DNA from: an uncultured bacterium
Lineage (GTDB): Bacteria > Hydrothermota > UBA3073 > NMUJ01 > CBEVQO01
Length of the DNA stretch: 64,000 nucleotides
NCBI GenBank assembly: GCA_965552055.1
Contig: CBEVQO010000002.1
Coordinates: forward strand, 416,001-480,000
Direction of reading: 5' to 3'
In this document: positions 1,432 to 59,784 of the stretch, one piece after another
How the letters are laid out: each line of letters starts with the position of its first letter
Position numbering within the stretch: position 1 is the stretch's first letter
The notes under the pieces: model-generated
Told to the model about the DNA's origin: nothing
The model's database searches: none
The model's input: the letters and a program-made list of their open reading frames with translations, nothing else
Made by a program: the position numbers and the translations under genes

Positions 1432-1458
1432 ATCATAATCACCCTATGAGTTTGTCAA
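1432..1458 (-). promoter_or_regulatory. Sigma70-like promoter TTGACA-N15-TATGAT
   Basis: Read directly; upstream of the SD of 545..1411. Confidence 0.7.
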
Positions 1459-1477
1459 TAAAAATTTTTAAAAATTT

Positions 1478-4300
1478 TTATTTTACTACGGACAAAGGCA
1501 AATTATTATCAAAATCGCCGTCTAAATCCGGGTTTTGCTTTCCTGCTGTTGCATTTCTCACCCTTTTATAAACCCAGTTGTATAATTCTCTCAGACGAAC
1601 AAATCCATCCCTATCTGTATCTGCCGAGCCCCGTAACCCTTTTATCAAATAATAGGTGAAAACGCCGTGATTATCCCATTTCTCTCCTTCAAAGGATACT
1701 TCACCAGCACTTGAGGCAGACATCACCGCCAAACTCCTGCGTGAAAGCGCAAGCTCTTCTATCAACTGCGAAACAAGATAATGTATCAATCCTCTCTTTA
1801 AACCGATTTCATCAATAAAACCACCAGAATGACAGGCATCTATGAAGAACACAATCTTACCTGCACGCGATAATTTAAGCAACCGTATAATATCCGAACT
1901 CGGAATGCCTGTAGCTGCTATTTTATCTGTTTCCGCATCATAGGGCAAAAAGTATAACTCATTGGCATAAGGAATACCGTGCAAAGCAAGATAACAAATA
2001 ACCATGTCATCTTTTCCTGCTCCTTTTAAAACCTTCTCAAAAGCATCAACTATATTTTTTCTGCTCGCTTTTTTATCTATTAAAAACCATATTTTATCAG
2101 GTGTAGCCCCGATAAACGGACTTTTCACAAGTTTATAAAAAGAAAGAGCATCGTTTGAAGCAGCCTTTAAGCGCAAGGATTTTTCCCTGTAATTTGAAAT
2201 CCCTATCACTATCGCCCAAATGGTAGGCAAAGAAAATTCCCTTCTGTCAATTACAAATTCATAAGAAGATTTTAAACCTTCCACATCTTCCGCTTCTATC
2301 CTCACATAATTTCTGCCTTCTCTTAACTTTATCTTCTCACTTATTTTATAAACTTTGCCAAAAATTTTCTTTTGTTTTAGTACCATGCCTCTTACTTCTT
2401 TTTTATTAAGGAAAATTTTCACATCCTTTATTCCCTTATCATCGAAAACCGCTCCATAAATTTCGTAAAATTCTTTATCTGTCTTCACATAAGAATCTTT
2501 TGGTTTGCTTATGGCAATTATTGGTGGGTTTTTCAAAAATATTCTGTAATATCTTATTTTTGGCTTTTCTTTTAAAATTTTGATTTTCTCCAGATTTTCT
2601 TTTCTTATCCATCCCGATAATCCTTTTTCTTCTATTTTAACCCATTCACCCATTTTTGCGGAAATAACTATATTTTGTCCAGAATCAATTTCTGCAATAA
2701 CAGGTAAGAAATCGCCTGCACCTGCATAAACTTTGACCCTGCTTTTTGTTCTGTAAAAATCTTTCACTTTCACAATTTTTGAAGGACGCATTTTTACAGG
2801 TAATTTTATATTAAATTCCCTTTTTATTCCCCAGAATTTATCAAAAATTTCAATTTTTAGAGGGATTTCTTTCCCTTTATATGCTGGTTTGCATGAAAAA
2901 TAAAATTTTGCTATTTTAACCTCCTGCGGATAGATTTTGCCAATTTCTTTTTCGGTCTTTGTGTGAAATTCAATATTTTTATAGTTTTTTGGTTTTATTT
3001 TAATTTTGACATCTCTACCTTCACCTGCACCTATATTTTTTACAAAAACATAAAGATTTATTCCTTCACCAGGTTGCACTATTCCATCGCCATTTCCCGG
3101 CTGGTCTTTAACCCTGTAAATGCAGGTAAAATCAGGATGTGGTAAACCCTCAACATAAATTTCTGTTCCTATATCCTGTGGATAATATCCATTATATTCT
3201 GTGAATTTTATTTCCAGAGGTATTTTTTGGGATTTTAAAGTTTCAGGTATTTCACAAATTAAAGATTTTGTGATTTCTTCTCCGGGTTTTAATCTTCCGA
3301 TTTCAAATTTTAAACCATTGAATATTTTTGACCTCGATTTTACAATTGCTTTTAAGCCATAAAATGTTCCGTCACCAATATTTTTTATTTTTAATTTCAG
3401 TAAAATTGACTCTCCTGCTCTTATGTGGTTACCGGGAAGTATCTGCAGGTCGCACCGAGCATAAGGCGTGCCACCCGGTTCTCCATGAAGATCGAGCAAA
3501 CTTAAAACTTTAAATTCATAAATCGGGCAAAAATCAACATTTTTAACTTTTAAAGTATAATTACCAGAAGGAGCATCTTCATCAATCTTTATCCTGACAG
3601 GAATTGATACCGCTTCACCAGGTTCTAACTCTTTTACTCTCTTCAAAACAGAAACTTCTGCATGATTTAACAAACTGCCTTCAAGAATCAAAGGAAAACT
3701 CTCAGATTTTAGATTCCCTCTATTCTCAATTTCTATATTGAGCATTTGATATTCTCCTGCTTCGAGTACTTTCTTTTTTGCATATATTTCTGCATATAAT
3801 TCTGGCGTATATTTTTTTATTTTCAAAGACCTTATCTCACCGAGCATTATTCCTGCTGATAAGAAAGGAGATATTTTTCCTTTTGTAAACTCTGCACCTG
3901 CTGATAATTCACCCGATATAACTCCTTTGCAGAACCTAACGCTTAAATTTGCTCTCCCTGTTTTCAATGTATCAAAAGGCTTTTGTAAATTTTGTGTCGC
4001 CCATCCGCACAGAGATAAATTTAAAAATGTGGAAAATTCGATTTGACCTGTTTTAAATGTTTTACCAAAAAGTGATAGGTAAAGATTTACAGGTAAAAAT
4101 AGGAATTTCTGACCAGAATCTATAAATGCTTCGCAGATGGAAGTGCCGATGCCTATCCCGGGAAAACCAGTACCCACGCTCATTCTTCCTGCTTTTATTT
4201 CTTTTTGATATTGATTTGCACCCAGATAAATGTAATCAAAGGAAATCCAGCCTTCGGGTTTATACTTTACCTGTAAAAGCAAAAAAAATATCCACATCAT
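1478..4300 (-). CDS. Exported multidomain protein with Ig-like (CARDB/NEW3-type) repeats, SH3-like domain and C-terminal caspase-family (peptidase C14) domain
   Basis: WAIVIGISNY, ALHG and FIDACHSG (His/Cys dyad), HGVFTYYLIKGLRGSAD, KQNP; SH3b-like EWVKIEEKGLSGWI. Confidence 0.8.
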   Translation of the reverse strand: MMWIFFLLLQVKYKPEGWISFDYIYLGANQYQKEIKAGRMSVGTGFPGIGIGTSICEAFIDSGQKFLFLPVNLYLSLFGKTFKTGQIEFSTFLNLSLCGWATQNLQKPFDTLKTGRANLSVRFCKGVISGELSAGAEFTKGKISPFLSAGIMLGEIRSLKIKKYTPELYAEIYAKKKVLEAGEYQMLNIEIENRGNLKSESFPLILEGSLLNHAEVSVLKRVKELEPGEAVSIPVRIKIDEDAPSGNYTLKVKNVDFCPIYEFKVLSLLDLHGEPGGTPYARCDLQILPGNHIRAGESILLKLKIKNIGDGTFYGLKAIVKSRSKIFNGLKFEIGRLKPGEEITKSLICEIPETLKSQKIPLEIKFTEYNGYYPQDIGTEIYVEGLPHPDFTCIYRVKDQPGNGDGIVQPGEGINLYVFVKNIGAGEGRDVKIKIKPKNYKNIEFHTKTEKEIGKIYPQEVKIAKFYFSCKPAYKGKEIPLKIEIFDKFWGIKREFNIKLPVKMRPSKIVKVKDFYRTKSRVKVYAGAGDFLPVIAEIDSGQNIVISAKMGEWVKIEEKGLSGWIRKENLEKIKILKEKPKIRYYRIFLKNPPIIAISKPKDSYVKTDKEFYEIYGAVFDDKGIKDVKIFLNKKEVRGMVLKQKKIFGKVYKISEKIKLREGRNYVRIEAEDVEGLKSSYEFVIDRREFSLPTIWAIVIGISNYREKSLRLKAASNDALSFYKLVKSPFIGATPDKIWFLIDKKASRKNIVDAFEKVLKGAGKDDMVICYLALHGIPYANELYFLPYDAETDKIAATGIPSSDIIRLLKLSRAGKIVFFIDACHSGGFIDEIGLKRGLIHYLVSQLIEELALSRRSLAVMSASSAGEVSFEGEKWDNHGVFTYYLIKGLRGSADTDRDGFVRLRELYNWVYKRVRNATAGKQNPDLDGDFDNNLPLSVVK

Positions 4301-4363
4301 TTATTATTCGATTTTAAATTTTACAACTTTATTTTTTTCGAGATTTTTTATTTTGAGAGATAT

Positions 4364-7300
4364 TCACCTTTCGAATCTTCCGCAGCAGTGTTTGTATTTT
4401 TTACCGCTACCGCATGGACATGGGTCATTTCTTCCAACTTTTTTATGTGGTCTCCTGTATGGCTCTGATGTGGTACCAACAGGTTGTGGACGCTGAGGTT
4501 CTGCTGGTTTCACCCCAAGTGCCTCTGGTGTAAGGTCTGAAAGGCGCTGTACTTCGGGCTTGTATGCAACCATTGGACGCTTTTTCTCTTCCTCCGGTAT
4601 AATAAATCTTAAACCAAATAAATGCCTTATAGTTTCTCTGTTAATCTGGGACAATAATTCTTCAAACATCGCAAATGCTTCATGCTTATACTCTACAAGG
4701 GGATCACGCTGAGCGTATCCCCTTAAACCTATCCCTTCTCTCAATGCATCAAGTTCATAAAGATGTTCACGCCACTTCCTATCAAGAGTGAAAAGTAAAA
4801 CCTGTTTCTCCAGCTCTCTCATATTCTCTTCTCCAAGTTCTTCTTCTCTTTGCTTATAAAGTGCAAAAATTGTTTCTTTAATTGTTCGCTCTATTTCATC
4901 TCGCTTTTTCTCAAGTAATTTTTCTTTCGGAACAACTATATCAACAAGGAATACATCCCGAATCTCAGAAAGCATTCCTTCAATATTCCATTCATCCGGG
5001 TCTTTTGAACTCAAATGTTTGTCAAAAATTTCTTCGAGAGTTTCCTCTATCATCTCTTTTACTCTCTCTTTTAAATTATCTTCTGCAAGAATCTGGTCTC
5101 TCATCTTATAAATCGTTTCTCTTTGTTTATTCAACACATCGTCGTATTCAAGTAGATGCTTTCTAATCCCAAAGTGAAATTTTTCCACTCTCTTTTGTGC
5201 ATTTTCTATTGATTTTGTAACCCATTTATGCTCTATTGGCTGGTCATCTTTCATTCCGAATCTTTCCATTATCGGTATCATCCTGTCACCACCGAACAAT
5301 CTCATCAAATCATCTTCAAGGGATACATAGAAGCGCACAGAACCTGGGTCGCCCTGTCTTGCGCATCTACCAGCGAGCTGAAGGTCTATTCGCCTTGCTT
5401 CGTGCCTTTCCGAACCTATTATATGTAAGCCACATTTTGGTTTTTCTCTGCATTCTTTTTTACATTGATTACGCCATTCTTTGTTTTTTCTTTTCTCTTC
5501 ATCAGGACAATTATCGCATCCCACAGTTTTTTCGAACTCACAGTTTATACAGCATTGTTTGCATTTCACAACTCCAGGTCCCAGTTTTATATCTGTTCCT
5601 CTTCCTGCCATATTTGTAGCAATTGTTACTTTGCCTTTTTGACCTGCCAGTGCAACGATTTCTGCTTCCCTCTGGTGATGCTTTGCATTCAAAACTTCGT
5701 GCTTTATGCCCCTTCTTTTTAGCATCCTCGATAACATCTCTGACACTTCAACCGATGTCGTTCCAATTAAAATTGGTCTCCCTGTTTTGTGGACTTCTTC
5801 TATTTCTTTCATTATTGCTCTGTATTTCTCTCTCTTTGTCTTATAAACTTTATCATCAAACCATACTCTTCTTACTGGCTTATGTGTCGGTATTTGCACC
5901 ACTTCGAGTTTATAAATTGTCCAGAATTCTTCTGCTTCTGTATGCGCTGTTCCTGTCATTCCTGCCAGTTTTTCATACATTCTAAAATAGTTTTGCAAAG
6001 TTATTGTGGCAAGAGTTTGGGTTTCTTCTTCAATTTTTACACCTTCTTTTGCTTCGAGTGCCTGATGTAAACCATCCGAATATCTTCTTCCTGGCATCAA
6101 TCTACCTGTAAATTCATCAACGATTATCACTTTGCCATTTTGCACAACATATTCAACATCGCGTTCAAACAGGGTATATGCTTTTATAAGCTGGGTTATG
6201 GCATGTGCCCTTTCTGCCTTCTCTGCATATTCTCTTTGTATTCTCTGTTTTTCAAAGAATTTCTCTCTTGGTGATAAATTCGGGTCTTTATCTACTTTTT
6301 TCAGTTCTGTTGCTAAATCCGGTAATTTGAAAAATTCTGGGTCACCATGGGCTAACTCTTTTCTACCCATCTCCGAAATATTCACAGTATGAGCTTTTTC
6401 ATCTATTGCGAAATATAATTGCTCATCAAGTTCATGCAGTTTTTTCTCCCTCATATATTCTGCTTCAACTTCTTCTATAAGGCGTTTGATTCGTGCTTCC
6501 TGTTCCAGCTTCATTAACCTTTTGTGTTTGGGCATTCCTCTTTTTGCTATCAACAATTTTTTACCTGCTTCTTTTTCTTTACCTTCCTTTAATAAGCGTT
6601 CGGCTTCTGCTACTATTTTGTTTATCAAATCCCTCTGTAATGCTACAACTCTTCTAACTCTTGGGTTTAATTTTTGATATGTTTTATTCAAAACAGATTC
6701 AACAGGTCCTGAAATTATGAGAGGGGTTCTTGCTTCGTCAATCAAGATACTATCAACTTCGTCAACGATTGCATAATGATGACCACGCTGTACTTTGTCT
6801 TCTAATCTCAAAACCATATTATCACGCAAATAGTCAAATCCAAATTCATTATTTGTTCCATAGGTTATATCGCAATTATACTGGGGCTTTCTGTCTTCCG
6901 GTCCCATGCCCATTTGTATCACGCCAACGGTCAATCCGAGAAGTTCATAAACAGGTCCCATCCATTCTTTATCACGGCGTGCAAGGTAATCGTTTACAGT
7001 TACAAGATGACATGAGCCCCGAGGTTTTCCATCCACCATGAAATCTCTTTCACCTTTAAGACCTCTTGCTCTGTGAATAACAGCGTTTAAATAAAGTGGC
7101 ATGGTTGCTACGAGTGTTTTTCCTTCGCCTGTTGCCATCTCTGCGATTTTACCCTGATGCAAAACTATCGCTCCAAGCAACTGCACATCATAGGGAATCA
7201 TATTCCAGTCCCAGAAATGTCCCGTCACCTTCCATTTTTTACCACAGAGTATCTCGCATGCGAGTTTTACAAGAGCATAAGCTTCATAAAGTATTTTTTC

Positions 7301-7549
7301 ATCGGGATTTTCACCATCTGCAATTCTCTTCACAAATTCTTCCGTCATCCAGAAATCTCCTGCTTCTTCCTGTGTTTCTCCAGAATATCTTGCTACTACG
7401 AGTTTTGCACGCTCTTCGAGTTCGTTTCTCAATTTCGTGTCATTCCTTAATTTTTCGTAGATTTCATTTATCCTTTTTACCTGTGGCCATAACTTTTTGA
7501 GTGCACGCTCATTGGCTGTGCCAAAAATTTTGGTCAAAAGATTTAACAT
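4364..7549 (-). CDS. secA: Preprotein translocase ATPase SecA
   Basis: MATGEGKT, DEVDSILIDEARTPLIISG, TNMAGRGTDI, GRCARQGDPG; C-terminal SEC-C motif CPCGSGKKYKHCC. Confidence 0.98.
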   Translation of the reverse strand: MLNLLTKIFGTANERALKKLWPQVKRINEIYEKLRNDTKLRNELEERAKLVVARYSGETQEEAGDFWMTEEFVKRIADGENPDEKILYEAYALVKLACEILCGKKWKVTGHFWDWNMIPYDVQLLGAIVLHQGKIAEMATGEGKTLVATMPLYLNAVIHRARGLKGERDFMVDGKPRGSCHLVTVNDYLARRDKEWMGPVYELLGLTVGVIQMGMGPEDRKPQYNCDITYGTNNEFGFDYLRDNMVLRLEDKVQRGHHYAIVDEVDSILIDEARTPLIISGPVESVLNKTYQKLNPRVRRVVALQRDLINKIVAEAERLLKEGKEKEAGKKLLIAKRGMPKHKRLMKLEQEARIKRLIEEVEAEYMREKKLHELDEQLYFAIDEKAHTVNISEMGRKELAHGDPEFFKLPDLATELKKVDKDPNLSPREKFFEKQRIQREYAEKAERAHAITQLIKAYTLFERDVEYVVQNGKVIIVDEFTGRLMPGRRYSDGLHQALEAKEGVKIEEETQTLATITLQNYFRMYEKLAGMTGTAHTEAEEFWTIYKLEVVQIPTHKPVRRVWFDDKVYKTKREKYRAIMKEIEEVHKTGRPILIGTTSVEVSEMLSRMLKRRGIKHEVLNAKHHQREAEIVALAGQKGKVTIATNMAGRGTDIKLGPGVVKCKQCCINCEFEKTVGCDNCPDEEKRKNKEWRNQCKKECREKPKCGLHIIGSERHEARRIDLQLAGRCARQGDPGSVRFYVSLEDDLMRLFGGDRMIPIMERFGMKDDQPIEHKWVTKSIENAQKRVEKFHFGIRKHLLEYDDVLNKQRETIYKMRDQILAEDNLKERVKEMIEETLEEIFDKHLSSKDPDEWNIEGMLSEIRDVFLVDIVVPKEKLLEKKRDEIERTIKETIFALYKQREEELGEENMRELEKQVLLFTLDRKWREHLYELDALREGIGLRGYAQRDPLVEYKHEAFAMFEELLSQINRETIRHLFGLRFIIPEEEKKRPMVAYKPEVQRLSDLTPEALGVKPAEPQRPQPVGTTSEPYRRPHKKVGRNDPCPCGSGKKYKHCCGRFER

Positions 7550-7567
7550 CTTGCCCCCCTATCAATA

Positions 7568-7594
7568 AATTTAATTAAATTTTTATAAAGTCAA
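7568..7594 (-). promoter_or_regulatory. Promoter TTGACT-N15-TAAATT for secA
   Basis: Read directly. Confidence 0.65.
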
Positions 7595-7596
7595 GC

Positions 7597-8787: not shown

Positions 8788-8788
8788 C

Positions 8789-11504: not shown

Positions 11505-11509
11505 CTTTT

Positions 11510-11536
11510 ATTGTAATCTTTATTTTAATTTGTCAA
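11510..11536 (-). promoter_or_regulatory. Leaderless promoter TTGACA-N15-TACAAT-N5-ATG
   Basis: Read directly; no SD before ATG 11504. Confidence 0.7.
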
Positions 11537-11545
11537 TGTTTAATT

Positions 11546-11700: not shown

Positions 11701-11711
11701 CTAAAAATTAC

Positions 11712-11738
11712 TTGACATATAAGAGAACCGATTAAACT
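11712..11738 (+). promoter_or_regulatory. Leaderless promoter TTGACA-N15-TAAACT-N5-ATG
   Basis: Read directly. Confidence 0.7.
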
Positions 11739-11743
11739 TAAAG

Positions 11744-14700
11744 ATGTTTTTGGCACTCCTTATATCGATTTTTCCAGAGATGAAAGATTTGATGCTCAAA
11801 CAAAAGGAATTTCTTCCAAAAATCTATCAAAATTATTATAACTTATTGCGGAAAAATCCCGAGCTGAGAGAAATTTTGAGAAAAATACCCAAAAATAGAT
11901 TGAAATTTGCCCGTAACTTAAGCAAAAAATTAAAGCAAGATGAAGCCGAAACCTTACATATTATTGCCATTCGTGTCGAATTTTTAAAAGATACTTTTTC
12001 GTTGACTTTTGGAAACGGATTGATGTGTGATACACCGAAATATTCGATGTATACAGGTGATGGATATCACAACATTTTGTATTATGACCCGCCTCATGAT
12101 TCCATTTATTTCCATTATTTGATGGTTGCTTTACGCAATTATTATCAGGATATCAGTTATGGCAAAATTTATATAACATGGGATATTGCACCAAAGGGGC
12201 TCGATACTGCATATCAATTACCTCATGAGATGGCTTATTATGGTGATACTTCAAATTATGCCCTTGGTCTTTTTATGCTGGTTCGTGATGCTATACTTGC
12301 ATGTGATGCTGACCACAATTTTCAGGTAGGCAAATATGATGGACATCTAATTTTTCACGCTGGATGCTCATGGCAGGCACAGGCAGCTTTTGGACTTACA
12401 CCCTACGATATTTTAACAGCTTATATACCATATTCTGAATATTTCCCGCCGATAATTACAAAAGAAGGAGACACCGTTTATGACGCTATAATTCTTCCGG
12501 AATCCAACTGGTATTATGTTGCTTTTGGAATGCAGGGAAGTATGTTTCATGAGTTCGCCCATCTACTTGGCGCCGTTGACCTTTATGATATCTCTTATAT
12601 GACGATTGGCGTGGGTGCATGGGACTTGATGGGTACGGGTGCCTGGAATATGCTGGGACATGTGCCCTGCAGGCTGTGTGCATTCCACCTTGAATATCTC
12701 GGTATAGTGAAGCCCAAAGTTATAACCAGAGATACTGTAATATGGGTGAAAAGATTATCACTCGCTCCTGACATTTATAAAATACCTGTAAATGAGAAAG
12801 AATATTTCCTGATAGAAAATAGATGTGCTTATATGCCGGAAAGTCTCGAAAGTACAAATCCAGATTCAAATGCTTTTAGAGTATGGAAATATGGAGTACT
12901 TGTAGATGTTAATGACTGGGATGTTTCTTTGCCGTGCAGTATTAATACATCGGGTATTGCTGTATGGCATATTGATACGCAAAAAGTTGCCATTTATGAT
13001 GATTCAAATACGGTAAATGTTGGCAGTCCCAAGGGAGTTGATATGGAAGAGGCAGATGGTGTTCAGGATTTTGAACTCCCATGGTATGAGATATCTGACT
13101 GGGATGCTGCACTTGAAGGTACACAATGGGATTTATTCTACAAGGGAAACGCAGATAGTTTTTCTTATTACACAAATCCCAGTTCTGCTTCAAATGATGG
13201 CGCTAATTCTTTTGTAAAAATGAAATTCGGAGAGATGGGCGATTCTATAAAAGTTGAAATAAAATTTGAATTTGTAAAATCGGGCTTCCCTGTTTCAAAT
13301 CTCGGTAAAGTTGATATAAACTCTCCTGTTCCTTTTGACTATGACGGCGATAATTTAGATGAAATTTTACTGATAGCAAATAAAGACAGTATCGGAATAC
13401 TTTATCTTTTTGATTACAAAAGTGGTTTAAAAATTGATACATTGTTAAAAAATTTCCCTGTTTCTTTTTCACAAATTGCAATAGGTGATATTGATGGCGA
13501 CAATCATGAAGAAATTGTATGGGGAAGTACAAAAGGTTTATGTGTTTATGACAGAGAAAAAGACACCCTTTATCTTTTTGGGATAAAAGAAGGGGTTTAT
13601 TCTGTTCCTACGATTTACGAAGGATTTGTAATTTTCGGTGCAGATGATAACAAATTGCATTGCGTATATCTTGAAAATGATAGTTTAAAAGAAAAGAAAG
13701 GTTTTCCAGTGGAAATAGGACACATGATAAGGGGTTCTGCGTGTTGTATCGGTGATTCTATTTTTGTCCTTTCGGGTGATGGAAGATTATATTGTGTATC
13801 TTTATCCGGTAAAATCTTATTTAGAGTTCTCAAAGAAAATTTGATGTTTACCGGTTTCAGTCCCGTTGCCGTTGATATAAATGGTGATGGCGAAAAGGAA
13901 ATAATTTGCGTAACCGGTACAGGTGATGTTTACGCAGTCAAATTAAACGGCGAAATTCTATGGCACAGACAGATTCCGGAAAATACTTATGAATATGCAT
14001 GGCTATCCACATCTCATCCTGTAATTGCGGACATTGATGGCGATTCTTTACCTGATATTATTTTTACTGCTGGCAAAAAATTGTATGTTTTAAATCACAA
14101 TGGTGCTTATCTAAATAATTTCCCGATTGAAGCAGATACCGGCTGGATTATTTCGACACCCATAATTTATGATATTGATGGAGATGGTGAAGTTGAGATT
14201 TCTTTTGGTCTTTCAAAAGGAAAATTTACATCATACGATGCTAATGGCAAATTGCAGATGTTTTTCCCTGTAGAAACCGGCACTCCCTGTTATTCTTCTC
14301 CCTGTATCTGCGACTGGGACGGCAATAAAAAAGCTGATATTTTCTTTGTCTCGGACACAGGTAAAATGTGGTGCATAGAATTTAATGGCAGTTACAAAAA
14401 AACAAAATGGTTCACAATTTGCAAGAATTTATCACGAAATCCTGTAATCGAATGGAATTATCCGCAAAAAGAATTTGTATTTACAAAAGAAAATTTTTAT
14501 ATTTATCCAAATCCATCAAAAGACGGAAAAATATTTTTGAGATTAACATCGCCTTCGAACGGCAAAGTAGAAATCATGATTTTAACCATCTCTGGTGATA
14601 TAAAAGCGAAATATGAAAAAGAAGTTTTAAAAGGAATAAATGATATTCCCCTATCCCTTAATCTGCCCGATGGCTTTTACATTGCACGAGTTAAAGTGCC

Positions 14701-14752
14701 TGATGGCAAATGTGGTTTTGCCAAATTTGTAATCGCCCGTAAATGGAAATAA
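11744..14752 (+). CDS. M6 (immune inhibitor A-like) metalloprotease with FG-GAP repeats and T9SS-type C-terminal domain
   Basis: HEFAHLLGAVDLY zinc motif, WDLMGTGAWN, EYFLIENR, repeated DIDGD motifs, YIYPNP C-terminal domain. Confidence 0.88.
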   Translation: MFLALLISIFPEMKDLMLKQKEFLPKIYQNYYNLLRKNPELREILRKIPKNRLKFARNLSKKLKQDEAETLHIIAIRVEFLKDTFSLTFGNGLMCDTPKYSMYTGDGYHNILYYDPPHDSIYFHYLMVALRNYYQDISYGKIYITWDIAPKGLDTAYQLPHEMAYYGDTSNYALGLFMLVRDAILACDADHNFQVGKYDGHLIFHAGCSWQAQAAFGLTPYDILTAYIPYSEYFPPIITKEGDTVYDAIILPESNWYYVAFGMQGSMFHEFAHLLGAVDLYDISYMTIGVGAWDLMGTGAWNMLGHVPCRLCAFHLEYLGIVKPKVITRDTVIWVKRLSLAPDIYKIPVNEKEYFLIENRCAYMPESLESTNPDSNAFRVWKYGVLVDVNDWDVSLPCSINTSGIAVWHIDTQKVAIYDDSNTVNVGSPKGVDMEEADGVQDFELPWYEISDWDAALEGTQWDLFYKGNADSFSYYTNPSSASNDGANSFVKMKFGEMGDSIKVEIKFEFVKSGFPVSNLGKVDINSPVPFDYDGDNLDEILLIANKDSIGILYLFDYKSGLKIDTLLKNFPVSFSQIAIGDIDGDNHEEIVWGSTKGLCVYDREKDTLYLFGIKEGVYSVPTIYEGFVIFGADDNKLHCVYLENDSLKEKKGFPVEIGHMIRGSACCIGDSIFVLSGDGRLYCVSLSGKILFRVLKENLMFTGFSPVAVDINGDGEKEIICVTGTGDVYAVKLNGEILWHRQIPENTYEYAWLSTSHPVIADIDGDSLPDIIFTAGKKLYVLNHNGAYLNNFPIEADTGWIISTPIIYDIDGDGEVEISFGLSKGKFTSYDANGKLQMFFPVETGTPCYSSPCICDWDGNKKADIFFVSDTGKMWCIEFNGSYKKTKWFTICKNLSRNPVIEWNYPQKEFVFTKENFYIYPNPSKDGKIFLRLTSPSNGKVEIMILTISGDIKAKYEKEVLKGINDIPLSLNLPDGFYIARVKVPDGKCGFAKFVIARKWK

Positions 14753-15601: not shown

Positions 15602-15628
15602 TTGACTTTACAGTTCTTTAATTAAAAT
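15602..15628 (+). promoter_or_regulatory. Leaderless promoter TTGACT-N15-TAAAAT (second ATG at 15634 is 5 nt downstream)
   Basis: Read directly. Confidence 0.65.
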
Positions 15629-17598: not shown

Positions 17599-17625
17599 TT
17601 GACAAATAAATAATTTGATTAAATT
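17599..17625 (+). promoter_or_regulatory. Leaderless promoter TTGACA-N15-TAAATT-N5-ATG
   Basis: Read directly. Confidence 0.7.
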
Positions 17626-18355: not shown

Positions 18356-19312
18356 ATGCCTCTAATAGTTTTTGAAAGAAAAGTTCGTGCTGGTGCAGGA
18401 ATGCGTCTTGACAAATATTTACATCAAGTAGGACTCGGACTCTCTCGTACACAAATCCAGAAATTAATAGAAGAAGGCAAAGTACTGGTAAATGGCAGAC
18501 CTGTAAAACCCAGTTATACTTTGAAAAGAGGAGATGAAATTTATGCAGAATACGAAAGAAAAGAACCTTTAAAGATAGAACCTGAACCCATTCCCCTTGA
18601 TATAATTTATGAAGATGATTACATAGTAGTTGTGAACAAGCCTGCTGGTATGGTTACGCACCCTGCGCCCGGCAATCTACGTGGCACCCTTGTAAATGCG
18701 CTTTTACATCACTGCGGCTTGGCAAAAGCAGATAGTATCGCAAGACCAGGCGTAGTCCATAGACTTGATAAAGACACATCGGGAGTTATTGTTTTCGCAA
18801 AAGAAAAGATTGCCTTATCAAATCTTGCAGAACAACTGCAAAAAAGAAGAATGAAAAAAGAATATTTAACATTTGTATGGGGAAATTTGCCACTGGATAA
18901 AGGAATAATCGATGCTCCGATTGGCAGGGATTTTATCGATAGGAAAAAAATGGCAGTAACACCTCTTTTATCCAAAGATGCTATTACCGAATATTTTGTT
19001 GAAAAGCGTTATAAATACATAACATTTGCGAGGGTGCATATTTTAACAGGCAGGACACATCAAATAAGGGTACACATGGCGCACATAGGGCATCCTGTTG
19101 TGGGTGACGAAACTTATCAGGGTAGACAGCGCTTATCGGGTATACCCCATGAATTTTTCGAAAAGGTTTTAGAAATTATGCAAAGACAGGCGTTGCATTC
19201 ACATAAACTTGGTTTTGAACATCCTGTTACAAAAAAATGGATGGAATTTGAAGCTCCTCTTCCAGAAGACATGAGAAACTTAAAAGAGTTTTTGGAGGCA
19301 CAAATTAATTGA
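18356..19312 (+). CDS. rluD: RluA/RluD family pseudouridine synthase with S4 domain
   Basis: RLDKYL S4 domain, VNKPAGM, HRLDKDTSG, TGRTHQIRVH. Confidence 0.9.
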   Translation: MPLIVFERKVRAGAGMRLDKYLHQVGLGLSRTQIQKLIEEGKVLVNGRPVKPSYTLKRGDEIYAEYERKEPLKIEPEPIPLDIIYEDDYIVVVNKPAGMVTHPAPGNLRGTLVNALLHHCGLAKADSIARPGVVHRLDKDTSGVIVFAKEKIALSNLAEQLQKRRMKKEYLTFVWGNLPLDKGIIDAPIGRDFIDRKKMAVTPLLSKDAITEYFVEKRYKYITFARVHILTGRTHQIRVHMAHIGHPVVGDETYQGRQRLSGIPHEFFEKVLEIMQRQALHSHKLGFEHPVTKKWMEFEAPLPEDMRNLKEFLEAQIN

Positions 19313-19335
19313 CAAAACTGTAAATCGATTATAAT
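19309..19335 (+). promoter_or_regulatory. Perfect-consensus promoter TTGACA-N15-TATAAT
   Basis: Read directly; precedes SD AAGGAGG of gcvH. Confidence 0.8.
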
Positions 19336-27684: not shown

Positions 27685-27711
27685 TTGACATTTTTAAATT
27701 TCTTTTAAATT
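27685..27711 (+). promoter_or_regulatory. Leaderless promoter TTGACA-N15-TAAATT-N6-ATG
   Basis: Read directly. Confidence 0.65.
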
Positions 27712-31443: not shown

Positions 31444-31455
31444 GGCACCCCCTTT

Positions 31456-33810: not shown

Positions 33811-33823
33811 ATCCCCCCCTTTT

Positions 33824-36367: not shown

Positions 36368-37296
36368 AATTCAAAATTTACAGCAACTCTATGGATATAA
36401 CCGAGATACTTATGCTTTTGAACAGTATAATCGATACCCATACTTGAGCCAACATTATATCCTATTCCAGCACCGTATTCTATCAAATCTTTTCGGGTAA
36501 TTCCTGTTCTTATTTTCATATTCCCGAGAACTGCTTCCAGACCAACAGCATAGGTAGTTGGCTGATCATTCTGATGCACAATCTCAGCATCCACCGTTAC
36601 TTTAGGACTTGAAAGCACATCCACAGCAAACCCTCCCTGAAAGCAGAGAGGCATAGGGAATGATGTAGAAATATATGTCCACGAAAAACCCTCTTCGGTT
36701 TCTTCTGTCAGATTCTCGCCCCTGTATCTGGTATTCGGTCCAAAATTCCTTATCGCATAACCAAACCTCAAATTGCCTGCAAGTCCTGTGTTGTATGTGC
36801 CACCGATATCTATCAACCATCCTGTCGCTGTAACTTTATAAATGTTCAGACTATAAACTTTTATCGTAAATCCCGCATTAAATTTATCTGTCAACCTCCT
36901 TGCGTAACTTATACCGAGTGCATAGTCGTTTGCAGAATAGTAATGCCCGGTACCTTCCTGTTGCTCCTCTGTTGTAATCTCAATCTTACCCGAAAAAGAA
37001 GCAATCATACTTATACCAACCGCTCCTTCTTTGGATGGGCTCACAAAAGCTATATCTGCACCTGTTATCCCGGCAAAAAACTTATTGCTCGTTAAAGATA
37101 CACTCTTCCTACTTACAAGCGCTATACCTGCGGGATTCCAGAACACAGCCTGTGGACCTTCTGCTATCGCAGTAAATGCACCACAGAGAGCTGTAGGTCG
37201 AGCACCTGCTCCGCGCGATAAGAACACACCCCCTGACCTGCCAGTATAGGCACTCAATACCCCTGGAAAAATAATTAATAACAAATACTTCCTCAT
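36364..37296 (-). CDS. PorV/PorQ family outer-membrane beta-barrel
   Basis: FLSRGAGARPTALCGAF, AVFWNPAGIA, ISYARRLTDKF; start at ATG 37296 after GGAGGTG. Confidence 0.8.
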   Translation of the reverse strand: MRKYLLLIIFPGVLSAYTGRSGGVFLSRGAGARPTALCGAFTAIAEGPQAVFWNPAGIALVSRKSVSLTSNKFFAGITGADIAFVSPSKEGAVGISMIASFSGKIEITTEEQQEGTGHYYSANDYALGISYARRLTDKFNAGFTIKVYSLNIYKVTATGWLIDIGGTYNTGLAGNLRFGYAIRNFGPNTRYRGENLTEETEEGFSWTYISTSFPMPLCFQGGFAVDVLSSPKVTVDAEIVHQNDQPTTYAVGLEAVLGNMKIRTGITRKDLIEYGAGIGYNVGSSMGIDYTVQKHKYLGYIHRVAVNFEL

Positions 37297-37305
37297 AATC
37301 ACCTC

Positions 37306-39078: not shown

Positions 39079-39086
39079 ATCCCCTC

Positions 39087-42000: not shown

Positions 42001-42314
42001 TGACCTGAACCAGCAGGATATTCTCCATTTAGACCGAGTGGCATATCAAGAGTTTCAAAAGGAAATGTACCATCATAATATTGCCATGATGGGGGTCTTG
42101 AAAATATTCCTCCCTGCAGAGTATTACTTATGCAAATATCCCTTAACTCACCTACCCCTGTCCATGCTACAATCCACCAATCCGCAGGCTTATCCCAGAC
42201 CCTTGTCTTATCACCAGTAGCATGATACGGCTCAGTGAACCTCAATTTCATCTCGTATTTACCATAGAGCAGGAAAGAATAAAGCAAACCTGTTATTAAA
42301 AACAATCTCCTCAT
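39087..42314 (-). CDS. Large exported protein with FN3-like region and CTD
   Basis: APPPSP, FEGYRVYKS, VVPNPY, TIRIFNAAGLLIK, WDLRT, SGLYIY, KFAIIK. Confidence 0.75.
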   Translation of the reverse strand: MRRLFLITGLLYSFLLYGKYEMKLRFTEPYHATGDKTRVWDKPADWWIVAWTGVGELRDICISNTLQGGIFSRPPSWQYYDGTFPFETLDMPLGLNGEYPAGSGQYYIWAYGLWVGALYPVISGSDTVWKPNVSKCAYYSDLGAMACYEAQNLGGKDLSGLGLYFSDQVIPVGYGYEGEGNLLFAQQGEEPASYQARWPFTDTTINRRRPEGMEVDTGDIISLEDTYACAGDWIPAGQATVLWVRDAGPYDEWGMGIRIEQRTYSWNYDYNNAYVYINWRIRNMNPFPLKNIYCGVFMDNDVGSEVSEEGQGAQDDLAGYDKELDLGYTYDSDGFEPGWETPAGYVGCVFCETPGDKGMTGFKVWHYGHDIDEDRTDSLKYLFLSDTAFMVWNNPFDIRQLQSTGPYPVLEPGEEISFTVALVVGLTLDELKERAEMARKQFENGYVGFAPPPSPDVWITPLDKKVIIAWDNKPESYVCPMSGEKTFEGYRVYKSESGLPGTWELLAEFDKKGSRTKDTVIVGYLKGTSSAQILLAQIDTILGTYSYTITFESKNSFKIYNETERILYEYNPDAIDDEIGDYCIIDPNTNKPYSSDPGYVSGAKIYIDGFYIIIKDGVYNPSQPADISPNPGDVFEVKSFKGYTVGQETGLNYVYVDEDVVNGKKYYYCVTSYSRELPYYGIPSMESGKTGTKYWAIPMETPADLKKPGLRLERIKGMGDVRFEAFVANPLDMPEETLLLVFQTSPTETTKIESWSIIGKESGDTIVDRCTDFDFKALPPTKGIVFRLAACRVCKIDTEKVIDTVYSHWSKSVGWKFNYDLKNVDKYYPLHEYEIRFVGDTWSEKDTRGNPCFFTVWDVTDDKPAYFWFYNKIQPEILNPNLDAIYIYADSSIFTDNYPNNWVICLKWDTVKGATPAGEEYPPLPDSGTVFYLYTLNRLTPSTQFILVPTKFGIKKESYSLDSVRVVPNPYFVKASWDESVEKRKIWFQGLPSECTIRIFNAAGLLIKTIEHKEQTIRPLSGASPEELRQEDRGPGAHAWDLRTDDGFEAPSGLYIYLITTPDGKRKVGKFAIIK

Positions 42315-42323
42315 AGCCCCTCC

Positions 42324-45300
42324 TTAAATTGATAACCTTATACCAACTCTTATTAATCTCCTGTTCATGTAATGATAAGGATTTGTTACATATATTTTCC
42401 AGAACTCTTTCACAGCGTTATACCACTCTTCAGGTGATTCAAAACCATAATCTTTATAATACCTCGAATAAAGTGAAGGCTCATAAACAGGTGCAGCTCC
42501 ATTATCATCGGGCAAACCTGTCGTTTCATAAACATCAGCGATGTTCAAGTTATTGGTCATATTCAAAATATCAGCATATAACTCCATTGGCAGCTTAAAT
42601 TTATACAATTCTTTCCTCAATCTTACATCTATTTGCCATGTAGAAGGTCTCCTTTTTGAACCCGGAGCAAGTGGATTGCCTTTCAGGTCTTCGGGTGTAT
42701 AAGGTGTGCCCGATTGGAATGTCCAATCCAAGTTTATGTTTAAACCGCCGAGTAACAGATTAAATTTAGGATAATCTATCGGGAAATAAAAGTTTATATA
42801 ACCCCTGAATGTGTGTGGCACTTCAAAATCCAGTGGAAACTCCATCTTCGGTAATTCCCTTGTCGTCAGCATATATCTCCTGTAATACTCATCGGATTCC
42901 GAACCTGTACCCCTTGCCGATTGATATTCATAACTTACCTCAAAACTCGTCTGTATACCGGCAAAAGAGCCAGCTCTCTGTTTCAAAGTAATCTCCATAC
43001 CTTTAACTTCTGCAATATCTCTTAACAAATAAATTGTGTACTGGGCAAGACGCTTACGCCAGATTGTTCTAACAGGACGGCTACTTAATAGATTCTTGAC
43101 ATCTTTAAAGTAAAAGGCAATAAGTCCTTTGAATTCCGGTGAAAACGCATATTCGTATCCCACCTCATAAAGCACCTGGCTCTCTGGTGGCAAGTTTGGA
43201 TTGCCTATCAGCGGATATCCGCAGGTTATATCGGCGTATAAATTCTGATAAAGGTCTTCAAGATTTACATGCTTAAAGAACCATCCATAATGGGCATACA
43301 TCTTTGATTTCTCTGTCACTGCATAACTTATTCCGAATCTCGGTGAAATCTGCCACTTGGGCTTTACCCATGCCCTACCAGAATCGAGATTCTCAAGATC
43401 AACATAGAATTCGGACATAGGATGGAAGAAATCTATCCTTAAACCAGGTTTCATTGTAAGGTCTCCGTACTCTATCTTATCCTGTATGTAAGCAGCAGCA
43501 GATACAGGTTTTTTACTATAATGGTCGGTATAAGGGTTCTCATTTGCAAAATATACCTCTGTCATCTTAACATTATAAAATCTTACCTGACCCCCTGCTT
43601 TTATAGTATGGAATCTATTAGGAGCATATGTCATTTTGAAACTTATTTCATAATGTTTATTCATCCTATCATGCCAGTAAGGATAAGCATACCAGCCAAA
43701 TAACACACCAGATGGCCATGCCCAATCAGGTCCCCTGTTGTATCTTATCATATACATATTACCACTGGGCTCCATCATTTCACGGGTAAATGTAGTGTCT
43801 TCTATCAATTTTACTACATCTTCGATATATTTATCGAGATTAAATTTATGATAGAAAATAGCCGTATCCCCTTTCATTAACACAACTGTATTCCACACGG
43901 TATCAAGCGTATCTGGACGCAATGTCCAGTGATAAGAATTTACCTCATACCACCTGTCGTTCAAAGCATCAACAATATTTGGCACAGAAGTAGTCCAAAT
44001 CCATCCTTTCTCCGGGTCCCATTTACCCCAATTTAGCACATTTTCATAATAGTAATAATATGCTTTATCAGCACCCCAGCCTTCTTTCCATTTCCTCCAG
44101 GCAGGGTCCCACCAGCCCTGAGATACCGCATAAGAAACCCAGGGCAACCTCTCTGCTATAACCTTCCATTCACTGTAATGTTTCCCATTAAACCCCGCTA
44201 CATGATAATGGGTGTTGAATAATCCAAAGGTAAAATAAAATTTTAACTTCGCAGAAGCAGAATATGTCAGATTCGCATTTAGTCTATAACTATCATGAGA
44301 ATATAATGGAGTATCCCTTAACCAATCTCCCCATGAAAAGTAATGAATATACCTGTGCCATACCCTTTTACCATAGCTCCCGGATAGCTTCAATATCAGT
44401 TTCTTCTCTTTACCGAAACCCCTTTCCCATTTAACGGTACCAGAACCTCCATACCTTCTTTCATCACTATGAGGCAATCTCCTTGGTCTCTTATATTTAA
44501 GCAACTCGTTGCGATAAAAGTTCCACATTGAAACAGAATCTTTTATCTCATACTCAGGAGAATCAAACCAGTTACCCTGCAAGAAGAAAGTGGAACCCTT
44601 ACCAAGGAACTTCAATGGACCACTCAAAACCCATCCAAGTTTATTATAGCCACTGTTATAAGGTCCAAGGAAGACATCACCATAATAGTTCAATCCAGCC
44701 ATCAGAATCGGTGTACCTGCTTTGGTAACGATATTTGCGACACCAGAAAGCACCTGTCCATATTCTGCATCAAAACCACTTTTTATAAGCTCCATTTCTT
44801 CAATGGCTGCGTTATCGATTATCTCACCAGCTTCACCTGTAAAAGGATCATTTACCACTACACCATCAACTATGTAAACGGTTTCTCCTGTTCTTCCGCC
44901 TCTTATGTGAATCTCTTTACCCGCTCCCCTCTGTATCGCTACAACTCCAGTGGATTTAGCTATAACATCGTGATAATTGGTAACGGGTTTTTGCTCTATC
45001 TCCTTACTTGTAACACGACTCACTGATGCAGTTACATCCCTCTCAACAATGGGTCTTTTCGCAGTAACAACTATAACCTGACCTTTCACCACCTCGGGCT
45101 CGAGGTAAAAATCCAGAGTATAAGTCATATCCGCAAATATCCAAACACTGTCAACACGCATCTTCGAATAACCCATACGAGATGCTTCAACAGTATAGCA
45201 ACCGACCGGGATATCTATTATCATGTAATTGCCATTCTTATCGGAAATAGCTCCTATCCCTGTGGGCTTGCCATTACGCAACAATGTTATTGAAACATAT

Positions 45301-45413
45301 CCCAGCGGCTTATTGGTAGATTTATCATAAGTCCTGCCAACGAGTTTACCAGTAACCCCTGCATACGCCGTCCAGCTCATTACACATAAAAATGCAATCG
45401 TTAAATACCTCAT
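42324..45413 (-). CDS. TonB-dependent receptor
   Basis: N-terminal CarboxypepD_reg-like domain, plug HIRGGR, GFDAEYG, SPRFGISY, GNPNL, C-terminal IRVGIRLSI. Confidence 0.9.
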   Translation of the reverse strand: MRYLTIAFLCVMSWTAYAGVTGKLVGRTYDKSTNKPLGYVSITLLRNGKPTGIGAISDKNGNYMIIDIPVGCYTVEASRMGYSKMRVDSVWIFADMTYTLDFYLEPEVVKGQVIVVTAKRPIVERDVTASVSRVTSKEIEQKPVTNYHDVIAKSTGVVAIQRGAGKEIHIRGGRTGETVYIVDGVVVNDPFTGEAGEIIDNAAIEEMELIKSGFDAEYGQVLSGVANIVTKAGTPILMAGLNYYGDVFLGPYNSGYNKLGWVLSGPLKFLGKGSTFFLQGNWFDSPEYEIKDSVSMWNFYRNELLKYKRPRRLPHSDERRYGGSGTVKWERGFGKEKKLILKLSGSYGKRVWHRYIHYFSWGDWLRDTPLYSHDSYRLNANLTYSASAKLKFYFTFGLFNTHYHVAGFNGKHYSEWKVIAERLPWVSYAVSQGWWDPAWRKWKEGWGADKAYYYYYENVLNWGKWDPEKGWIWTTSVPNIVDALNDRWYEVNSYHWTLRPDTLDTVWNTVVLMKGDTAIFYHKFNLDKYIEDVVKLIEDTTFTREMMEPSGNMYMIRYNRGPDWAWPSGVLFGWYAYPYWHDRMNKHYEISFKMTYAPNRFHTIKAGGQVRFYNVKMTEVYFANENPYTDHYSKKPVSAAAYIQDKIEYGDLTMKPGLRIDFFHPMSEFYVDLENLDSGRAWVKPKWQISPRFGISYAVTEKSKMYAHYGWFFKHVNLEDLYQNLYADITCGYPLIGNPNLPPESQVLYEVGYEYAFSPEFKGLIAFYFKDVKNLLSSRPVRTIWRKRLAQYTIYLLRDIAEVKGMEITLKQRAGSFAGIQTSFEVSYEYQSARGTGSESDEYYRRYMLTTRELPKMEFPLDFEVPHTFRGYINFYFPIDYPKFNLLLGGLNINLDWTFQSGTPYTPEDLKGNPLAPGSKRRPSTWQIDVRLRKELYKFKLPMELYADILNMTNNLNIADVYETTGLPDDNGAAPVYEPSLYSRYYKDYGFESPEEWYNAVKEFWKIYVTNPYHYMNRRLIRVGIRLSI

Positions 45414-45429: not shown

Positions 45430-45456
45430 TTTATAATCCATCTGTGAGGTTGTCAA
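45430..45456 (-). promoter_or_regulatory. Promoter TTGACA-N15-TATAAA for the TBDR operon
   Basis: Read directly. Confidence 0.6.
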
Positions 45457-45491: not shown

Positions 45492-45518
45492 TTGACAATT
45501 TCAAAAATCGATTAATAT
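45492..45518 (+). promoter_or_regulatory. Promoter TTGACA-N15-TAATAT
   Basis: Read directly. Confidence 0.6.
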
Positions 45519-48797: not shown

Positions 48798-48798
48798 G

Positions 48799-48870
48799 AG
48801 CGGAAGACGGGATTCGAACCCGCGACCTCCTGCATGGCAAGCAGGCGCTCTACCGCTGAGCTACTTCCGC
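48799..48870 (-). tRNA. tRNA-Gly(GCC)
   Basis: Acceptor GCGGAAG/CTTCCGC; anticodon arm CCTGC-TTGCCAT-GCAGG. Confidence 0.95.
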
Positions 48871-48878: not shown

Positions 48879-48905
48879 ATTATATCCAAAATCTTAAATT
48901 GTCAA
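48879..48905 (-). promoter_or_regulatory. Perfect-consensus promoter TTGACA-N15-TATAAT for tRNA-Gly/Cys
   Basis: Read directly; -10 box ends 8 nt before the tRNA. Confidence 0.8.
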
Positions 48906-48914
48906 GCTTAATTT

Positions 48915-50378: not shown

Positions 50379-50406
50379 ATAGAGTTTAAAGCAAAATATA
50401 TATCAA

Positions 50407-51762: not shown

Positions 51763-51785
51763 CACCCCCTCCTTAAATTACTTTT

Positions 51786-51812
51786 AATTTAAGCCATATA
51801 CCAGTTTGTCAA
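51786..51812 (-). promoter_or_regulatory. Promoter TTGACA-N15-TAAATT
   Basis: Read directly. Confidence 0.7.
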
Positions 51813-51821
51813 TATATTTTC

Positions 51822-51848
51822 TTGACAAATATAAATTTTCATTAAAAT
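51822..51848 (+). promoter_or_regulatory. Leaderless promoter TTGACA-N15-TAAAAT-N5-ATG
   Basis: Read directly; places the start at 51854. Confidence 0.7.
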
Positions 51849-51853
51849 CGCAG

Positions 51854-53250: not shown

Positions 53251-53268
53251 ATTATGAATAAATTTTTA

Positions 53269-53295
53269 TTGACAAACTGATATTTTACTTAAAAT
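53269..53295 (+). promoter_or_regulatory. Leaderless promoter TTGACA-N15-TAAAAT-N5-ATG
   Basis: Read directly; places the start at 53301. Confidence 0.7.
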
Positions 53296-53300
53296 TGGGG

Positions 53301-54305: not shown

Positions 54306-54313
54306 GAGGGGGT

Positions 54314-54895: not shown

Positions 54896-54898
54896 GTT

Positions 54899-59715: not shown

Positions 59716-59720
59716 CCCAT

Positions 59721-59747
59721 AGTTTAAACAAATATTGTAATTGTCAA
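59721..59747 (-). promoter_or_regulatory. Leaderless promoter TTGACA-N15-TAAACT-N5-ATG
   Basis: Read directly. Confidence 0.7.
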
Positions 59748-59757
59748 CAATTTTCAC

Positions 59758-59784
59758 TTGACAAAGTACTATTTTGAATAATAA
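59758..59784 (+). promoter_or_regulatory. Promoter TTGACA-N15-TAATAA for tRNA-Arg
   Basis: Read directly; -10 box lacks the final T. Confidence 0.55.

Follow-up and report, generated by a model that had tools for sequence, protein, structure and literature searches.

TTGACA-N15-TAnnnT promoter-like sites across an uncultured bacterial genome and its order, and a possible change of housekeeping sigma factor

Introduction

To our knowledge, the 17-bp spacer that separates the -35 from the -10 box of bacterial promoters is regarded as a near-universal constant, set by how far apart sigma2 and sigma4 lie on the RNA polymerase. A stretch of 64,000 nucleotides (nt) from an uncultured bacterium (the window; G000:C2:416001-480000), whose genome (G000) comprises 2.23 Mb with approximately 35% GC and is 97% complete, carries seventeen sigma70-type promoter-like sites with a spacer of 15 bp (N15 sites), and raises the question of how widely this spacing is used and what reads it. 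The N15 class is real and constitutes a variant of the sigma70 promoter, restricted to one order among the genomes searched. As its reader we favour, with a probability of roughly 55%, a short Bacteroidota-like sigma factor, which would now act as the housekeeping sigma and would have displaced the long RpoD. The relatives are referred to by the phylum label WOR-3, of which the analysed genome is probably a member; f-numbers designate families and G-numbers genomes.

Results and Discussion

Promoter-like sites with a 15-bp spacer in the window and in the genome

All 17 boxes of the initial annotation were recovered at their coordinates and on their strands, each with a spacer of 15 bp (Table 1). 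The -10 box reads TAnnnT at 15 sites and TAnnnA at the other two (45456- and 59758+); two sites (19309+ and 48905-) are perfect TTGACA-N15-TATAAT, and the -10 box is directly preceded by GAT at 8 and by a T at 15 of the 17. The boxes had been described as intergenic, which does not strictly hold for every one of them: the 19309 box includes the stop codon of the open reading frame (ORF) at 18356-19312. The spacer had also been called invariant, which applies to the 17 window sites and not to the genome as a whole. When all 72 occurrences of TTGAC[AT] in the window are considered, TAnnnT is found at 15 bp in 15 cases, and in one to three cases at each of 13, 14 and 16-19 bp.

Genome-wide, a TTGACA box was counted as intergenic when it was not wholly inside a crude gene call, which resulted in 523 boxes. 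The distance to TAnnnT has its mode at 15 bp (312 of the 523) and not at 16-18 bp, with 46 boxes at 16 and 62 at 17, while shuffling the 40 nt located 3' of each box gives an expectation of approximately 25 per spacer. Counted over the whole genome, the N15 pattern occurs 416 times, versus 26 times for the reversed pattern. Boxes lacking a 15-bp match include 19 with TAnnnT at 17 bp and 19 at 18 bp, and the sites exclusive to N17 or N18 often hold a shifted N15 or N16 box; a further 114 of the 523 have no TAnnnT at 12-21 bp, 44 of which still display TA at the N15 position. Upstream of 368 divergently headed genes, an N15 site was found in 205 cases, an N16 site in 25 and an N17 site in 36. 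An unbiased position matrix built 3' of the 523 boxes has its peaks at offset 16 (T, 0.85), offset 17 (A, 0.80) and offset 21 (T, 0.67); T-12, A-11 and T-7 are the signature of a -10 box.

The TTGAC[AT]-N15-TAnnnT sites number 487, of which 392 have a same-strand gene start within -60 to 200 nt. TTGACA and TAnnnT thus follow each other 5' of genes in the order of a canonical sigma70 promoter, but the modal spacer is 15 bp instead of 17 +/- 1 bp. The -10 box is mostly TAAAAT or TATAAT, a G is found three bases 5' of it in 47% of the sites, and a C just before the -35 box and an AT-rich upstream tract are further features of the N15 sites. The idea of two promoter classes serving two sigma factors was rejected, the TAnnAT and TAnnTT sites being alike in seven of eight features (the C before the -35 box differs, p = 0.007).

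Stable RNA genes and start codons fix the register of the boxes. Among the 47 transfer RNA (tRNA) and transfer-messenger RNA (tmRNA) genes, 26 have a TTGACA within 60 nt upstream, followed by an N15 spacer in 25 cases (with T or A as the sixth base; three of them assessed by eye) and by an N16 spacer in one. Both ribosomal RNA (rRNA) sites are compatible with N15, the second promoter also having a TATAAT at 18 bp. An ATG opening a frame of at least 60 codons lies 5 nt past the -10 box at 108 of the 487 sites and 6 nt past it at 57, and this leaderless-type ATG is directly preceded by a G in 96 of 108 and 40 of 57 cases, respectively (in the window at 11536-, 11712+, 17599+, 51822+ and 59747-), which may reflect one-nucleotide G-AUG leaders or an unusual start element. 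The 5' ends of the tRNAs mostly lie 5-9 nt past the box. Together, the start codons at 5 nt and the tRNA ends leave no room for a true -10 box two bases downstream, and these distances imply that transcription would start slightly nearer to the -10 box than in E. coli, at a bound of about 6 nt or less; in E. coli, the available part of PMC12641261 places the favoured start 7-8 bp past the -10 box, at a Y-1 R+1 start element.

The N15 sites dominate among the promoter-like elements of the analysed genome and its order. Judged from the tRNA, tmRNA and rRNA sites, the start-codon spacing and the sharing across the order, they likely act as housekeeping promoters. The same observations support the proposal, made from the window, of an altered sigma2-sigma4 ruler in this lineage.

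Distribution of the spacer among relatives

The spacer was surveyed in 151 genomes of the phylum by counting TTGACA-Nk-TAnAAT at 15, 16 and 17 bp. The analysed genome gave 261, 49 and 21 sites, respectively, and no other genome exceeded 17 sites at N15 with this -10 box. Family f2 (three genomes, the only other members of the order among the relatives) also uses N15, with a T-rich -10 box (99, 89 and 62 sites versus 19, 17 and 12 in the controls). Its 68 intergenic TTGACA boxes in 444 kb are followed by the -10 box at 15 bp in 36 cases, at 16 bp in 5 and at 17 bp in none; the -10 consensus is TA[AT][AT]TT, and a G three bases upstream is present in only 14%. In an RpoB plus RpoC phylogeny, the analysed genome and f2 are monophyletic sisters (support 0.993) on long branches.

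The sampled genomes of the phylum outside the order display a spacer of 16 or 17 bp or no clear peak. Family f4 is strictly N17 (152-277 sites versus 2-10 at N16; eight genomes), and f17 and f24 are strictly N16 (234-285 sites; eight genomes). Seventy-five additional genomes of the phylum contained no further N15 lineage, and within the set of genomes searched N15 is confined to the order. Candidates with N15 counts 2.5-3 times the reversed control (G039, 48 versus 15; G018, 42 versus 16) were dismissed, their peak being at 16-17 bp, and so was family f3 as a second N15 lineage (4, 17 and 22 of 100 at 15, 16 and 17 bp).

Several further observations were made in this survey. The f3 genomes hold 10-17 N15 TAnAAT sites each, versus 1-5 in the controls, and TTGACT-N14-TATTAT is located 5' of the operon of degP and a short sigma factor in three of three f3 genomes (L102:4456, minus strand; L100:315 and L101:284, plus strand); a small short-sigma regulon is possible in this family. 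Most genomes of families f28, f30, f22, f19 and f20 have few TTGACA-N15/16/17-TAnAAT sites, and another motif or spacer is possible there.

Core RNA polymerase and accessory factors

A changed beta-flap or a global accessory factor had been put forward as the cause of the short spacing. The flap, however, is identical in length to that of E. coli and without insertion or deletion in four of four N15 genomes, as is the beta' zipper; the zinc-binding domain, the lid and clamp helices and the dock likewise have E. coli-identical lengths without insertions or deletions in all four. With respect to an accessory factor, no CarD was found in five of five genomes tested, in which only Mfd matched. The analysed genome and G001 have 11 RpoB and 9 RpoC substitutions in common versus 17 other genomes, which lies inside the 4-28 seen in four control sister pairs; the sole flap substitution among them is beta K890R, which also occurs in an N16 genome. 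An arginine of the beta' zipper that 20 relatives share without exception is replaced by lysine in the analysed genome only and not in f2 (G000:C1 rpoC, around 188465-192500, minus strand). In the three f2 genomes (L110-L112, L170-L172), rpoB and rpoC are non-adjacent: they lie on different contigs, and rpoC is outside the stretch analysed after rpoB.

The long RpoD

The long RpoD of the analysed genome contains regions 1.1, 1.2, 2, 3 and 4, and its gene (G000:C7; L002:490-2217) follows dnaG. A changed sigma3-4 linker was another suspected cause, but the long RpoD is not shortened: the span from the WW of region 2.3 to the RER of region 4.2 is 151 residues, versus 149-151 in 26 other long RpoDs. 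The protein scores 288 bits against the TIGR02393 equivalog model (cut-off 354; most relatives score 318-387, many of them also below the cut-off), and 14 of 80 near-invariant columns are changed, versus 0-8 in 21 canonical relatives. R441K and D445E (E. coli numbering by alignment) are among these columns; further changes are A438Q, T440M, V454P and E458N, the loss of one residue from the region 3.0 helix and a non-acidic finger, and regions 1.1 and 1.2 are changed as well. The C-terminal part has no homologue above 53% identity; the nearest named homologues (51-53% identity) are two labelled WOR-3 and two labelled Cloacimonas/Cloacimonadota, which makes the assignment of the genome to WOR-3 probable. 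A locus search for relatives returned only four distant sigma factors, and the ESM Atlas only sigma70 clusters.

The three f2 genomes (99, 87 and 66% complete) yielded no long RpoD. In both f2 genomes in which dnaG was located, this gene overlaps or runs straight into a DUF4159 gene, which occupies the place of rpoD; in G004, rpoD lies just downstream of dnaG. A long RpoD is present in 97 of 100 other genomes tested (the analysed genome included; two are split). The three remaining genomes (G128, G020 and G086) were rejected as further losses: two also lack dnaG, and in one dnaG is at a contig end, so that they look like assembly gaps.

The short sigma factor

Besides the long RpoD, the analysed genome encodes a short sigma factor of approximately 265 amino acids (aa) without region 1.1, whose gene (G000:C5, around 66580-67377, minus strand) lies between degP and an M23 peptidase gene. 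Pfam assigned regions 1.2, 2, 3 and 4, and no region 1.1, to its G001 orthologue, to which the copy of the analysed genome was aligned. The orthologues of the analysed genome and f2 group together (0.839) at the same locus; degP adjoins the short sigma gene at 13 of 16 WOR-3 loci, that of the analysed genome included, and also in G001 and G003. In f2 it is the only group 1/2-type sigma found (275 aa; regions 1.2, 2, 3 and 4), so that by parsimony its orthologue would read N15 in the analysed genome too. A status as the only group-1-like sigma of the genome holds for f2, but not for the analysed genome, where the long RpoD remains.

Residues of the short sigma that align with E. coli F427, Y430, W433, W434, R436, Q437, T583-R586, R588 and Q589 are retained. 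Its span from region 2.3 to region 4.2 is shortened by 3 residues, with 147 residues in the analysed genome, 148 in f2, 147-149 in the rest of the class as measured and 149 in f15, versus approximately 150. The ratio of long to short sigma divergence is 0.80 in the analysed genome, the highest of 16 genomes, followed by 0.60-0.74 in f15 and 0.36-0.57 in the other twelve. Among Bacteroidota, two genomes without a long RpoD were encountered, and degP was adjacent at one of four sigma loci (the best sigma match of a Prevotellaceae genome).

6S RNA

According to the available part of PMC8058203, 6S RNA, an imitation of an open promoter, associates with the housekeeping holoenzyme. Outside the order, the Rfam 6S model (RF00013) matches in 14 of 14 genomes of the class; inside it, in none of four. 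In G009 and G035, the 6S gene sits between zapA and rny, and it is in this gap that the analysed genome holds a remnant of approximately 90 nt, outside the window (G000:C2:320593-320684; L290:594-685, plus strand). A model of 15 WOR-3 6S RNAs matched it with 23 bits (E = 0.0014) as its single match in the genome. In the remnant, 128 model positions, corresponding to the central bubble and the upstream arm, are replaced by 45 nt, and the RNA folds as one long hairpin (z = -5.0).

A zapA-like gene located a few tens of bases from rny, without 6S between them, was found in f2 (three of three), f15 (two of two), f10, f21 and f32; f10 and f21 have lost 6S from this site and kept a canonical RpoD. 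Weak matches to the WOR-3 model (18-20 bits) occur away from the zapA-rny locus at G002:C58:4328-4389, G002:C103:3041-3113 and G003:C76:4684-4756.

A short sigma factor as the predicted reader of the N15 promoters

If the short sigma has become the housekeeping factor, its region 4.2 would still read TTGACA and its region 2 would still melt TAnnnT, while the shorter sigma3.2-4 linker, together with an altered region 3.0, would keep sigma4 nearer to sigma2 by about two base-pair steps, the core being unchanged. The transcription start would be 4-6 nt past the -10 box, and leaderless or one-nucleotide-leader (G-AUG) mRNAs would often result; the long RpoD would by now have a secondary role or be in decay, and 6S RNA, which mimics RpoD promoters, would be left without a target. 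Slightly under even odds are given to the broader picture of a housekeeping-sigma replacement caught half-way, with RpoD and its 6S mimic in decay and a short paralogue, related to the Bacteroidota primary sigma, running the cell from TTGACA/TATAAT boxes 15 bp apart with an unmodified core.

Several results weigh against a takeover by the short sigma. The reading frame of the long RpoD is intact and linked to dnaG, and all of its residues with established roles in melting and -35 recognition are kept; the clustering of its changes in regions 2.4 and 3.0 (V454P, E458N and the one-residue deletion) could represent adaptation instead of decay. The clade that joins the short WOR-3 sigmas with those of Bacteroidota is supported at just 0.715, and codon bias, with a crude reference set, does not distinguish the two sigmas (44th and 31st percentile). 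The promoters of the analysed genome resemble those of long-RpoD N16 families more than those of f2, both in the -10 box (mostly TAAAAT or TATAAT, versus TA[AT][AT]TT in f2) and in the G three bases before it (47%, versus 38% in f17, 44% in f27 and 14% in f2). The span of the long RpoD is normal in strict N16 families, which indicates that span alone does not set the spacer, and f15, in which the long RpoD is divergent, the short sigma conserved and 6S absent, has an N16 spacer (34 sites versus 7 at N15). A clear N15 TTGACA excess was present in none of 221 Bacteroidota-phylum genomes, a weak test because a different -35 box is used there. Finally, the WOR-3 6S model finds nothing in nine other families, most of them with a canonical RpoD, and for this reason the link between 6S loss and a sigma takeover is only suggestive.

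Family f15 (G030, G036, G042, G047 and others) and f32 (G123) have a divergent long RpoD (248-296 bits), a well conserved short sigma, no 6S at zapA-rny and an N16 spacer (L037, L078, L204-L207, L220, L241); a second sigma takeover is possible there.

Alternative explanations

The long RpoD could still be the main reader, its remodelled regions 2.4 and 3.0 having reset the ruler to 15 bp, with the short sigma of f2 inheriting the N15 promoters later. Its changes are concentrated at the contact of sigma3.0 with the spacer, its intact gene has kept its synteny with dnaG, and the -10 consensus is RpoD-like; moreover, the N16 families f17, f24, f27, f34 and f9 carry V454A and E458D, and f17 and f27 share the same upstream-shifted G. 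These two substitutions, occurring in N16 families with similar promoters, make region 3.0 of the long RpoD a live alternative, although we consider it unlikely, as it requires two different sigma factors to reach N15 inside one order. The long RpoD is also the fastest-evolving among 16 genomes relative to its paralogue, with changes extending to regions 1.1 and 1.2, f15 is similarly divergent without N15, and 6S has decayed in the analysed genome. Comparably improbable, in our estimate, is that point substitutions in the core, such as beta K890R, or an unrecognised accessory factor set N15 throughout the order whatever the sigma, the loss of RpoD in f2 being incidental. A single change of this kind would cover both families despite their different -10 consensus and sigma sets, the shared RpoB and RpoC substitutions could provide it, and the family-specific modes of 16 versus 17 bp at normal RpoD spans point to something besides linker length that tunes the spacer. 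The core modules, however, are free of insertions and deletions, the number of substitutions is that of control pairs, K890R is conservative and is found with N16 elsewhere, and CarD was not detected in any of the five genomes.

An error in the boxes themselves is very improbable. In AT-rich DNA, the real -10 box might lie 1-2 bp further downstream, or the sites might be non-promoters or spread by a repeat, and some sites do offer an alternative TAnnnT at 17-18 bp, such as the TATAAT at 18 bp of the second rRNA promoter. Yet the position matrix peaks exactly at offsets 16, 17 and 21, and the start codons and tRNA 5' ends exclude a box 2 bp downstream. Spread by a repeat is contradicted by spacer sequences that vary between sites and by the deeply diverged f2, in which the spacing is the same and the -10 consensus a different one.

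Features of the window

Four pairs of N15 sites stand back to back (27660-/27685+, 45456-/45492+, 51812-/51822+ and 59747-/59758+) with -35 starts 10-36 bp apart, which accounts for inverted TGTCAA/TTGACA pairs. The window further contains a long single-strand cluster (29926-45413, minus strand), FCB-like in character, whose first gene is TonB-dependent receptor-like and which encodes a subtilase and Por secretion C-terminal sorting domains, and, downstream of secA, a 940-aa protein that combines CARDB with a caspase (C14) domain at its C-terminus (1478-4300, minus strand).

Table 1. N15 promoter-like sites of the window. Distances of ATG codons are counted from the -10 box.
Position	Strand	Boxes	Associated gene and remarks
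1432..1458	-	TTGACA / TATGAT	leadered; 5' of ORF 545-1411
7568..7594	-	TTGACT / TAAATT	5' of secA (4364-7549)
11510..11536	-		PRK/uridine kinase family gene; ATG at 5 nt
11712..11738	+		ORF 11744-14752; ATG at 5 nt
15602..15628	+	TTGACT / TAAAAT	DUF5618 gene; ATG at 2 and 5 nt
17599..17625	+		RNase PH gene; ATG at 5 nt
19309..19335	+	TTGACA / TATAAT (perfect)	5' of glycine cleavage H gene; -35 box overlaps preceding stop codon
27634..27660	-		4Fe-4S protein gene; ATG at 2 and 5 nt; divergent partner of 27685
27685..27711	+		PHP-domain gene; ATG at 6 nt
45430..45456	-	-10 TATAAA	leadered; TonB-dependent receptor-like gene
45492..45518	+	-10 TAATAT	alternative TAnnnT at 18 bp
48879..48905	-	TTGACA / TATAAT (perfect)	8 nt 5' of tRNA-Gly (48798-48870), then tRNA-Cys
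51786..51812	-		leadered; malic enzyme gene; overlaps divergent site 51822
51822..51848	+		TPR protein gene; ATG at 5 nt
53269..53295	+		5' of RnfD-family gene; ATG at 5 nt
59721..59747	-		metallo-beta-lactamase-fold gene; ATG at 5 nt
59758..59784	+	-10 TAATAA	8 nt 5' of tRNA-Arg (59793-59868); alternative at 18 bp

Significance

A whole promoter set at 15 bp with unchanged boxes, next to relatives fixed at 16 and 17 bp, makes the question of what sets the spacer length testable by swapping parts of sigma and core. Should the half-way replacement be correct, the sigma2-sigma4 ruler could be reset by sigma alone, WOR-3 would offer a natural series of 15, 16 and 17 bp together with a second takeover in f15, and the lineage would illustrate a possible way for a cell to replace one housekeeping sigma by another. 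On the practical side, N15 sites would escape promoter predictors built on E. coli, and an N15-specific sigma could provide an orthogonal expression system.

Comparison with known systems

Sigma32 and SigB are alternative sigma factors with short counted spacers. For sigma28, a promoter spacer of N14-15 is given in the available part of PMC3333780; the counted spacer of about 15 bp is shared with the N15 sites, but such factors use different extended -10 motifs and serve small regulons, whereas here sigma70 hexamers are used genome-wide. No housekeeping promoter class with a 15-bp spacer was found in the literature searched, which left most subscription journals outside its coverage, the single match to a "spacer of 15" being the sigma28 promoter in the accessible text of PMC3333780.

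Canonical sigma70/SigA promoters of E. coli and B. subtilis, as described in the part of PMC12641261 at hand, share with the N15 sites the TTGACA and TAnnnT boxes, the C before the -35 box, the AT-rich upstream tract and the use at tRNA and rRNA genes, but differ in a spacer mode of 16-18 bp, with 17 bp predominant, versus 15 bp. In the same excerpt, this range comes from a 49-species survey with an E. coli-trained model limited to 15-19 bp. Structures in the available portion of PMC4496709 show sigma4 rotating to fit spacers within the usual 16-19 bp range. In the analysed genome, the distance of the G or TG from the -10 box is one base greater than in the canonical TGn extended -10 element, and in place of the Y-1 R+1 start 7-8 bp downstream (PMC12641261, in part), an ATG preceded by G is found at 5 nt. 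In comparison with 6S RNA (RF00013; PMC8058203, available part), the remnant keeps the zapA-rny position and both ends of the closing stem, but the central bubble and the upstream arm that imitate the open promoter are missing, and Rfam does not detect it.

The WOR-3 families with a fixed spacer of 16 bp (f17, f24, f27 and f34) or 17 bp (f4) resemble the analysed genome in their near-perfect boxes and family-specific set point. A leaderless ATG at 5 nt also occurs in f17, but is preceded by T instead of G (eight of nine). Unlike the analysed genome, these families keep a conserved long RpoD and, where tested, mostly an intact 6S RNA.

The Bacteroidota/Chlorobi primary sigma provides a precedent for the short sigma. 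The Bacteroides factor lacks region 1.1 (PMC12632263, available part), and the Chlorobaculum RpoD groups with the Bacteroides primary sigma and, at one promoter, a -6 box precedes +1 by 4 bp (bioRxiv 10.1101/172254, available part). A short sigma without region 1.1 and a similar region 2.3 motif are shared (B. fragilis sigmaA, -33/-7 promoter), a degP-adjacent locus was seen at one of the four Bacteroidota loci, the start lies near a -10-like box as predicted for the analysed genome, and the TAnnTT box of f2 is alike. The Bacteroidota -33 TTTG / -7 TAnnTTTG promoter itself, as given there, differs from the N15 sites, which have TTGACA and TAnnnT and no TTTG tail. In contrast to Bacteroidota, the order keeps the full TTGACA together with an N15 spacing unseen in the 221 genomes of that phylum, the analysed genome retains its long RpoD, and the support for orthology of the short sigmas with those of Bacteroidota is moderate (0.715).

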